From Escherichia coli (GTDB taxonomy: Bacteria; Pseudomonadota; Gammaproteobacteria; Enterobacterales; Enterobacteriaceae): a DNA stretch of 64,000 nt. The position numbers were made by a program. Each line of letters opens with the position of its first letter. Positions within the stretch are counted from its first letter, which is position 1. Of the stretch, positions 51,901 through 54,900 are shown one piece after another. The stretch lies in NCBI RefSeq assembly GCF_017348835.2, contig NZ_CP071375.1, one strand, 5' to 3'.

Positions 51901-54900
51901 ACCGCTGAAACGGTGCTCTGTATCCGCGGTGATGGCGGTGGTCACCAGACGGCTGTCCTGACCGCTTCCACTGGTCAGGCGCAAACTGAAGCGCACGCCC
52001 TTCACCACCCGCGGCGTGTCCCATTTCGCCTGTGCCAGATACTGGCCGTCAGCGGCGCTCACCTCCACCGTCAGGTGCTGCACTGCCGGTGGAATAACGC
52101 TGTTCAGGGTGCCTGACTGCGGCTCAAAGCTGGCCCCGTTATCCACGATGGCTTCCTTTTCCGGTACGTGCTGCACCGCCGTGATGGCAAAGGTGCCGTC
52201 CGTGTTTTCCCGGATGGAGACACAGCGGAACAGGCGACGACGCAGTGACTGCAGGGAGAGTCCCCATACACCGTATGTCTCCACACCATCAGGCAGGGTG
52301 CTGACCTGTATCCGGTCCGGCGCGGGGTGTGCGGTGATGTCCACACTCACCGGCTTACCGCTGCCGTTAATCAGGTTCACCGTGGCGGCACCTGTCTCCG
52401 GCAGGGTCACCTCACGGTCCAGTGTCAGGGTGCGGCTGGCGGCATCAATGGACAGGACACGTCCGCCGGTCAGGGTCCCGGCATAGTCGTTATCACAGAT
52501 TTCAATGATGTCACCGGGTGTGTGCCGCAGCCCCTGAGACCCGAGCGTGAAATCCACCGTCTGCGTTTCCAGCAGTCCGGTCTTTATCACCCACAGTCCG
52601 GCACGGTGGGCCTGACCGCGGCTGGTACAGCCGAACGCGTCCATCTTCAGCAGGTTGCGTCCGTAGCGCAGTATGGCTTCCGGGTCTTCCACCAGTTCAG
52701 TGGAGGTCTGCCAGCCGTTCTGCGGGTCGGTGTAATTCACCTCCACCGCCGTGTGCCGGTCCTTCAGGGCACTGAAGCTGTAGCGGAATCCCACGCCGTT
52801 ATCATCCACCACCACATCGCTGTTGGTGTACGGCCACACCACATCCGACGGGCGGTCCTGAACGAACGTCAGCGTCTGGCCGCTCCATACCGGCATACAG
52901 CGCATCGCCGAGCAGAAATCACTGAGAACGTCCCACGCCTTACGCTGTTGTGACAGGTACGCATTAAAGGTCATCCGCGGCTCTGTGCCCCCGAAACCAT
53001 CCGGGACCGTCTGGTCGCAGTACTGCCCGATGGCATACAGCGCCCACTTGTCAACATCCGCCGCCACCAGACGTTTTCCCATGCCATAGCGCGGGTGAGT
53101 CAGCATGTCCCACAGGCACCAGGCCGGGTTGTTGCTGTATGCCGGTTTCAGGCTGCCGTCCCAGATGCCGCTGTACGTGCGTTTTTCCGGGTCATAGTTT
53201 GACGGTACCTGGATGATGCGACCGCGGATATGGTAGTTCACCGTCATCTGCTGACCGCCAAACTGCTCCGCATCCACCTGCAGCCCCACAATCGCCGTGT
53301 TCGGGTAGCACTGTTTCACATCGATGATTTCGGTGTATGACGACCAGAGCGTCTTATTCTGCAGCTGGTCCGTGGTGCTGTCCGCCGTCTCCCTGACCAT
53401 CCGGATGTTAAAGGGCCGGGGCGGCAGATTATCCAGAATCACCGACGCCAGGAACTGTGAGGTGGTCTTGCCGTTAATGGTGACATCCTTTTCCGTCACC
53501 CAGTTACCGTTACGCTGCAACTGAATCAGCAGTCGGACAGAAGAGGGATTACGGTCGCCCTTTGAGGTGGTCTCCAACAGTGACTGCACCCCGAAGGTGA
53601 CCCGCAGGCGGTCAATGTTCGCGGACGTAATGGTGCGCGTCACCGGCTTTGCCTTCGTCACTTCCACGCCCAGTGCGGTTTCCGCCCCGGAGGACTCAAA
53701 GCCTTCAGGTGGTGTCTGCTCCTGCTCCCCGGCGCGCCAGACCGCTGTCACACCATGTATCACAGGATTACCGTCCGTGTCCGTCAGCGGGGTTTTGTTC
53801 ACCAGGATACTCTGCAACCCCTTCACCGGACCTTCAATCGGCCCTTCACCAATGGCATCAATCACGCTCATCATCTGCGTGGACTTAAGATTGTCCTTTG
53901 CCTCAACCGGCGTGTGCGCCCTGCCGCCACCTTTACCCATAATGTTCCTCTCAATTGGTATTATTAATCGCAGTGATAGGATATTGCACAGCTATTGCGC
54001 GATATCATCAGAACGCTGTTTGTTACCCTGTAACCAGCAAGCTCAGTCTGTTAACGGAATTAATGAGGGTTTTATGAAATGTAAAATCATTGCTGCCATT
54101 GCCATGCTGACAGCAGCATCATGCGGATACGCAGCAGAACAGGAAGTCCCAATGAACCTTGTCAGTGCTGACGGAAAAGAAGTCAGCATTGGAAAAATAA
54201 CCATTCAGGAGACCCCCTACGGTCTGCTGTTCACACCAGCCCTTCACTCTCTGTCTGAAGGCATTCATGGTTTTCATGTGCACGAAAAAGGAAATTGCGC
54301 CCCGGCACTGAAAGACGGAAAACCGGTCGCAGCATTATCGGCTGGCGGTCACTTTGACCCGAAAAACACCGGCAAACATCTTGGCCCCTGGTCTCCGGAT
54401 GGACACCTGGGCGACCTCCCTGCGCTGTTCGTGACGCATGACGGAAAAGCGAACTACCCGGTCCTGGCCCCGAGACTGAACTCATTAAAAGAGATTAAAG
54501 GGCGTTCTCTCATGCTTCATGCTGGCGGTGATAACCATCATGACCATCCGGAGCCCCTGGGCGGTGGTGGTGCGAGAATGGCCTGCGGCATCATTCAATA
54601 ATCAGTCAGGTAAGGGGCGGGCCCCTTACCTTTATTCCTCAGGACGATAAATCCTTTCTCCCTGAAAAGAACGGCACATCCTCCCTCTCTGAGTTAATGT
54701 TTTTGTCGTGACATAAGAATAATTCCTTACACTCAATCTTCGTAACGCTCCCGCAGTTCCTGTCCGTGAGCACTGCGGGATTTTTTCGCTTTTATGCCTG
54801 CCGCCCGATAACCACCACCTTCCCGTCACCGCCTTCATCACGGGTACTGATGTCCTGGGATATACGGCGGGAGCCAACCAGCATTTCCCCGTAAGGCACC

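Follow-up and report, generated by a model that had tools for sequence, protein, structure and literature searches.

Removal of superoxide in the periplasm is the established function of the Cu,Zn superoxide dismutase (Cu,Zn-SOD) family, and periplasmic members encoded by prophages are recognized, in Salmonella as in EHEC, as cargo that contributes to fitness or virulence. Two Salmonella prophages offer close parallels to the Escherichia coli locus analyzed here, which lies in a 64,000-nucleotide stretch of contig NZ_CP071375.1 (assembly GCF_017348835.2), henceforth the window. Fels-1 carries sodCIII (STM0924) in the slot between tail genes I and J, in the same antisense orientation as the sodC gene of the window, and the two proteins are 60% identical. 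Salmonella sodCI (STM1044), which is under PhoPQ control, is likewise prophage-borne and antisense to the tail operon; it encodes a periplasmic Cu,Zn-SOD of the dimeric class that is 59% identical to the SodC of the window, but its slot in Gifsy-2 is another one, between lom (downstream of M) and L. Gifsy-2 sodCI is expressed in lysogens, and the lambda morons lom and bor are similarly autonomous cargo, placed between late genes and expressed by the prophage (PMC7067206). In terms of the moron concept of Juhala and Hendrix, lom and bor are the same kind of autonomous cargo unit as sodC, although the cargo protein differs. The orientation of lom is also different: it follows J in lambda and in the window alike, but is sense, while sodC is antisense.

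The sodC-F1 gene of pathogenic E. coli has been characterized both biochemically and genetically by D'Orazio et al. 2008 (PMC2569942). Chromosomal epitope tagging and a lacZ fusion established that it is expressed autonomously in lysogens; a 299-bp stretch upstream of a sodC gene identical to that of the window gave RpoS-independent lacZ expression. SodC-F1 builds up in exponential as well as stationary phase, and also anaerobically. It is found in the soluble periplasm and in a lipid-modified membrane fraction, part of the pre-protein being freed by signal peptidase I after residue 20 and part being lipidated at Cys17 and held at the membrane. SodC-F1 is dimeric, resists proteinase K and EDTA, and has an activity of 19380 U/mg, three times that of the chromosomally encoded E. 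coli SodC, a less stable and less active monomer that is RpoS-dependent and made only in aerobic stationary phase. Deletion of sodC genes lowers resistance to hydrogen peroxide (all PMC2569942). The chromosomal enzyme (PDB 1ESO) nevertheless has the same fold and metal ligands as the SodC of the window, at ~59-61% identity. A later comparative paper also points out the extra sodC of prophage Sp10 (PMC8046923). No paper was found that states the I-J position of sodC explicitly; that position rests on genome annotations.

In the window, the late tail module of a lambdoid prophage occupies the minus strand in the order H, M, L, K, I, J, with a lom-like gene and tail-fibre genes lying beyond J. 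The interval between I, its upstream neighbor in the late operon, and J, its downstream neighbor, contains a gene on the opposite strand. The features, in the numbering of the window, are these:

50464-53940, minus strand: tail gene J, tail tip / host specificity, 1158 aa (ORF call; match at E 0 to PHROG 31 'central tail fiber J'; identical locus so annotated in RefSeq)
53941-54073, plus strand: sodC upstream region, 133 bp (read from the sequence)
54074-54601, plus strand: sodC-F1 coding sequence, 175 aa and stop, Cu,Zn superoxide dismutase of the periplasmic class (profile, PDB and alignment matches)
54608-54637, plus strand: sodC intrinsic terminator, a 10-bp G+C-rich stem (54608-54631) with a 4-nt loop, then TTTATT
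54681-54791, plus strand: resident I-J spacer element, ~112 bp, I-proximal, outside the sodC cassette and shared with sodC-less phages
54749-54757 / 54772-54780 (stem) and 54781-54786 (T6), plus strand: second terminator, belonging to the spacer element (scan and fold)
54792-55472, minus strand: tail assembly gene I (ORF call; PHROG 32 and 4244, tail assembly protein)
55376-56113, minus strand: tail gene K (K-like by PHROG profile)
56119-56817, minus strand: tail gene L
57143-59722, minus strand: tail gene H

Gene I has a shorter, 193-aa form in the RefSeq annotation. The gap is bounded on the minus strand by the start codon of J (53938-53940) and the stop codon of I (54792-54794) and covers exactly 53941-54791, or 851 bp. 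These are the limits between I and J that the initial annotation, made from the sequence alone, had assigned to an insert transcribed against the late operon; the position and the opposed orientation (sodC on the plus strand, I and J on the minus strand) are both borne out. The G+C content of the gap is 49.6%, and that of sodC 52.8%, compared with 57.6-59.6% for J, I, K, L and H; a low value is as expected for acquired cargo.

The identity of the gene is not in question. Its product matches Pfam Sod_Cu (PF00080) with an E value of 4.8e-32 over model positions 3-133 of 133, exceeds the curated cut-off of the NCBIfam SodC equivalog NF007628 (218.4 bits against 165), and matches PHROG 1975, a 'superoxide dismutase precursor' in the category moron, at E 9.5e-97. 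Solved bacterial SodC structures (from Haemophilus ducreyi and Yersinia, Salmonella SodCI, and E. coli SodC) are matched at E 1e-56 to 1e-62. Such agreement with SodC profiles and structures is far beyond what chance would give. An earlier proposal to check the Cu/Zn ligands, whose loss would have spoken against a superoxide dismutase, turned up all of them: the copper ligands H68, H70 and H149, the zinc ligands H102, H111 and D114, and H93 bridging the two. They are invariant in an alignment with the Fels-1, Gifsy-2 and E. coli SodC proteins and human SOD1; the E. coli SodC and human rows of this alignment were entered by hand, and the PDB alignments agree with it on the conserved positions. 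The catalytic R168 and the disulfide-forming cysteines C75 and C171 are present as well. At the N-terminus, a basic n-region, a hydrophobic core and an AxA-type cleavage site provide the features of a Sec signal peptide, predicted to span residues 1-20, together with a lipobox, AASC, whose cysteine (Cys17) is encoded at 54122-54124. The signal peptide that had been ascribed to the gene is thus visible in its sequence, and export of the identical protein is published (PMC2569942). Judged by its sequence, the ORF encodes a complete Cu,Zn superoxide dismutase.

Comparison with prophage sodC alleles, which had also been proposed, places the gene precisely. Over its whole length (851 of 851 nucleotides) the gap has the same sequence as the stretch between I and J in Sp10, a prophage of E. 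coli O157:H7 Sakai, and the protein is identical at 175 of 175 residues to ECs_1989, which is annotated as a copper/zinc-superoxide dismutase between tail assembly and host-specificity genes; what differs is the host strain and the site of prophage insertion, the interval itself being the same. A second O157:H7 copy (strain ATCC 35150) departs from the window at a single position in 851 bp, 54408 (T/C), changing Leu112 (CTG, 54407-54409) to Pro. L112P is the published difference between the F1 and F2 alleles (D'Orazio et al. 2008, PMC2569942). Because Leu112, the marker of the F1 allele, occupies this site, the allele of the window is sodC-F1. On the strength of nucleotide and protein identity, the gene is the already known sodC-F1 of pathogenic E. 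coli and is not new: the locus adds one more copy of a sodC annotated in the Sakai record, studied in 2008, and carried by roughly one in ten complete E. coli genomes.

The locus is, with a probability that we put at about 95%, the sodC-F1 moron of EHEC/EPEC lambdoid prophages, an autonomous plus-strand unit placed between I and J and directed against the late operon. The I-J distance (851 bp, compared with 60 bp in lambda and 239-259 bp in phages JLK-2012 and Stx2a_F349), the gene's own terminator and its different G+C content are the marks of a moron. In a lysogen, the unit, consisting of promoter region, ribosome-binding site (RBS), 175-codon gene and intrinsic terminator, would be driven by its own promoter; when the phage grows lytically, the Q-antiterminated late transcript would presumably cross the cassette in antisense to reach J, which would be served by a ribosome-binding site of its own. 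The description of sodC as lysogenic-conversion cargo is upheld by the published work: lysogens express the identical sequence from a promoter of its own, and the product is an active periplasmic enzyme (PMC2569942).

The signals that would support such expression can be located with varying precision. The sodC RBS, GAGGG (54065-54069), lies four bases 5' of the ATG. The candidate promoter combines an extended -10 element, TGaTAGGAT (53974-53982), with TTGGTA (53955-53960) as the -35, and it is weak. A sigma-70 consensus scan of the gap found no site with at least 9 of 12 matches, so the position of the sodC promoter is only inferred. The upstream region is partly conserved in the sodC alleles of E. 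coli strain cM8a and of Fels-1. Analogy with Salmonella sodCI raised the idea of PhoP control, which was dropped: a search upstream of sodC for the PhoP box KGTTTA-N5-KGTTTA, allowing up to 3 mismatches, gave two 3-mismatch matches only, overlapping the RBS and start codon, and these are at chance level. The terminator that the gene had been credited with is there; the hairpin folds at -17.9 kcal/mol (z -2.4) and, read on the minus strand, is followed by no T-run. An Rfam scan of 53700-55000 at permissive E-values returned sub-threshold noise only, the best match, STnc400 over the sodC terminator, being rejected because its 23 bits fall short of the gathering score, 80.

Of 5426 complete E. 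coli genomes, 546 contain the sodC-specific segment, at 722 places in total, and 541 of 548 matching records are at least 99% identical; two deposited Stx2a phages also carry the cassette. Since the full I-sodC-J junction is present in 544 genomes, as against 546 with the segment, the cassette appears to lie essentially always between I and J. In the cM8a allele, at 80% nucleotide identity, sodC again lies between I and J in the same orientation, and the J-proximal junction and upstream sequences of cM8a, Fels-1 and the window are related.

How the 851 bp arose is less simple than had been supposed. It had been stated that in lambda I is immediately followed by J, which is inaccurate, the two genes being 60 bp apart. 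Examination of the I-J junction in lambdoid prophages does yield sodC-less relatives, but not abutting genes: the lambda-type phages have the same short junction as lambda; most Stx-type and EHEC-type phages, with flanks 92-98% identical, have an I-J spacer of 235-259 bp; that of the PPompW phages is ~340 bp; and the closest sodC-less relatives, JLK-2012 and Stx2a_F349, with flanks 94-97% identical, have 239-259 bp. The extent of the cassette was read from an alignment of the spacer of the window with those of JLK-2012, Stx2a_F349 and the Sakai prophages Sp11, Sp14 and Sp15, all sodC-less, and with the cM8a allele. Upstream of the J start codon the aligned versions part at once, and each therefore has its own J ribosome-binding site (in the window, the Shine-Dalgarno sequence GAGAGGA, read from plus-strand positions 53946-53952, lies within cassette-specific sequence), and they rejoin at ~54676-54680. 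The sodC-specific part accordingly comprises about 735 of the 851 bp (53941 to ~54676), standing in place of ~130-150 bp that the sodC-less phages possess and that contains, just upstream of J, a late-strand terminator-like hairpin. Fels-1 also has a late-strand terminator-like hairpin just upstream of J. The remaining I-proximal element is near-identical in sodC-less JLK-2012 and in the cM8a allele. Thus, the 850-bp estimate of the initial annotation stands as the size of the gap, but not as the length of sodC-specific sequence, ~112 bp being resident spacer.

That the 851 bp represent a single insertion into a lambda-like junction at which I abuts J is therefore unlikely. The short junctions of lambda (60 bp) and lambda-type phages would suit such an event, but the nearest relatives already have the longer spacer, the I-proximal ~112 bp are common to the window and to relatives that have no sodC, the sodC segment takes the place of other sequence instead of being added to it, and cM8a retains even more of the old spacer 3' of its sodC than the window does. 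It is more readily supposed that the sodC-F1 cassette replaced the J-proximal part of an older I-J spacer of ~240 bp and that homologous recombination within the conserved flanks I and J may have carried it from prophage to prophage.

The resident element is homologous to the I-J spacers of Sakai prophages Sp11, Sp14 and Sp15, to which EcOnc24, EcOnc23 and EcOnc22, respectively, map. These are mutually homologous, Hfq-bound, plus-strand RNAs, and EcOnc22 gives a ~85 nt Northern band and loses stability when Hfq is missing (Tree et al. 2014, PMC4104026, Table S2). All three map within the I-J spacers, 240 bp long, of their respective prophages, antisense to the late genes. When a shift of ~+140 bp between Sakai genome versions is applied (an estimate calibrated on AgvB1 and only approximate at 2.2-2.9 Mb), the EcOnc22-24 peaks come to lie on the I-proximal element, just before its terminator; without the shift they are still inside the spacer. 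The element of the window shares with EcOnc22-24 the I-J spacer position, the strand antisense to the late genes, a terminator stem CCCGCAG/CTGCGGG with a T-run, and blocks of sequence, but it is a diverged sequence variant. In Fels-1, by contrast, the stop codon of sodCIII lies only ~53 bp from gene I, and an EcOnc-like spacer element is lacking. Three other assignments for the I-proximal element were ruled out by position: AgvB and AsxR are both at the PR' moron site, HnrS (EcOnc10-12) lies ~5 kb from PR', and EcOnc54 is in the L-K slot of Sp6. An Rfam scan of the JLK-2012 spacer yielded nothing.

The versions of this element differ in their promoters. JLK-2012 has upstream of it a sigma-70 promoter with 10 of 12 consensus matches, TTCACA-16-AATAAT, and cM8a has one with 11 of 12, TTCACA-16-TATAAT, downstream of the sodC terminator; in each, promoter and terminator define a plus-strand unit of ~95 nt. 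The -35/-10 region of the JLK-2012 and cM8a spacers is absent from the window: neither there nor in any of the sodC-F1/F2 copies examined is there a -35, and ATCCTC stands at the position of the -10. The body of the sRNA persists together with its terminator, and the promoter appears to have been lost in the sodC-F allele. This loss can only be inferred, because a Sakai EcOnc copy that was detected experimentally also escapes a simple promoter scan. Among the orphan Hfq peaks listed by Tree et al., none falls between I and J of Sp10, which is weak negative evidence only (PMC4104026). It is conceivable, though on balance doubtful, that the cassette landed in an antisense sRNA gene of the EcOnc22-24 family and removed its promoter, leaving the sRNA body to be generated, possibly, as a read-through or processing product of the sodC 3'UTR. 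The sRNA body and its terminator lie ~50 nt downstream of the sodC terminator, which is rather weak (T-tract TTTATT). Were this so, an Hfq-binding phage sRNA would have come under control of the sodC promoter.

The state of the prophage bears on whether sodC is functional. In strain PE164, which matches at 100% and in which the prophage likewise adjoins yodB/zinT, the prophage terminase gene is frameshifted. Because of this frameshift, the prophage may be defective, and antisense read-through in lytic growth may then never occur in PE164. Neighboring cargo genes of the window are broken: an IS interrupts nleB2, nleH has a frameshift, and nleC is reduced to a fragment. One could take the damaged terminase and the broken cargo to mean that sodC, too, is an inactive remnant, a pseudogene carried passively in a decaying prophage. 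This is very improbable: the ORF is full length and keeps every catalytic and ligand residue, the near-uniformity of its matching records (541 of 548 at the level given above) speaks against decay, and for the identical allele published enzymology already disproves it, the protein being a dimeric SOD that is active and is made in vivo (PMC2569942). Even less credible is the notion that sodC serves the phage rather than the lysogen, through lytic expression or as part of the virion, for which there is only the tail-module position, recurring in Fels-1 and Gifsy-2, and against which stand the strand opposite to the late operon, the gene's own terminator, the Sec/lipoprotein signal, expression in uninduced lysogens (PMC2569942), the PHROGs classification as a moron, and the existence of closely related phages that do without sodC.

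Confirmation of the sodC-F1 moron adds nothing new on sodC itself; its modest added value is anatomical. The I-J junction emerges as a recurrent cargo slot, holding either an antisense sRNA gene or sodC, and in the common sodC-F allele the sRNA promoter appears to have been overwritten. The initial annotation had noted that the cargo is placed within the tail cluster rather than at the prophage end. The placement is real, but it is the norm for these phages and no oddity, since Fels-1 (in the same slot), cM8a and Gifsy-2 (between lom and L) have cargo in their tail clusters, as do L-K junctions: that of cM8a carries genes for an antirepressor, Arc and ClpP, and that of Sp6 carries a regulator and an antirepressor.

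The gap also contains minus-strand ORFs (44-96 aa), either antisense to sodC or overlapping gene I. A possible minus-strand start lies in the spacer, and the length and frame of the corresponding peptide differ between the window and JLK-2012.

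The I-proximal portion of the I-J gap of the window is a conserved spacer element, with a plus-strand terminator at its end, that recurs at the following positions in two loci of sodC-less E. coli phages or prophages (L002 and L010) and in the cM8a prophage (L008):

window 54681-54791, plus strand, conserved I-J spacer element
L002 2045-2178, conserved I-J spacer element
L008 5760-5890, conserved I-J spacer element
L010 11795-11930, conserved I-J spacer element

The window copy shares homology with the corresponding spacers between I and J in Sakai prophages Sp15, Sp14 and Sp11, to which the Hfq-bound sRNAs EcOnc22, 23 and 24, respectively, map (Tree et al. 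2014, PMC4104026). The sRNA promoter seems to have been deleted in the sodC-F allele; the cM8a allele retains sodC along with an intact promoter-sRNA-terminator unit.

Directly upstream of J, the late strand (the strand of the tail operon) of the sodC-less E. coli phages carries a strong hairpin and T-run resembling a terminator. This hairpin is absent from the sodC-F allele of the window; it might serve to keep stray transcripts from running into J and lom in lysogens. Its occurrences, including that in Salmonella phage Fels-1 (L005), where the alignment was inspected by eye, are:

L002 1984-2007, minus strand, terminator-like hairpin with T-run
L010 11742-11765, minus strand, terminator-like hairpin with T-run
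L005 about 5870-5895, minus strand, terminator-like hairpin with T-run

On the other side of the gap, the RefSeq gene I product has 193 aa (window 54792-55373, minus strand); read from a start further upstream, the ORF would encode 226 aa (54792-55472, minus strand) and overlap K by about 100 nt, much as I also overlaps K in lambda.

Cargo is also found at the L-K junction of related prophages, and several junctions of the tail module are therefore cargo slots. In the cM8a prophage this junction (L008 7269-10691) is occupied by antirepressor, YlcI/YnfO, Arc-family and ClpP genes, and past L lies an ompC porin gene; in Sakai Sp6 (L009 4554-6209) a regulator and an antirepressor are found there, flanking the Hfq peak EcOnc54.

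The prophage end past the tail fibres (window 43723-48000) is an effector cargo region:

43723-44292, nleF
about 44347-45258, nleH, frameshifted
45579-45866, nleC fragment
45900-46493, nleB2, C-terminal part
46437-47405, IS5-family transposase ORF
47431-47946, nleB2, N-terminal part

The segment that splits nleB2 and contains the transposase ORF (46409-47461, about 1.05 kb) is missing from strain PE164, which is otherwise 99.98% identical. Several of the genes in this cargo region are decayed; sodC, by contrast, is intact.

The prophage end adjoins the chromosomal oxidative/metal stress genes hchA, hprSR, hiuH, msrPQ, zinT and yodB (window 33902-43700; names assigned by colinearity with PE164), and it is probably by chance that these lie close to cargo encoding a superoxide dismutase.
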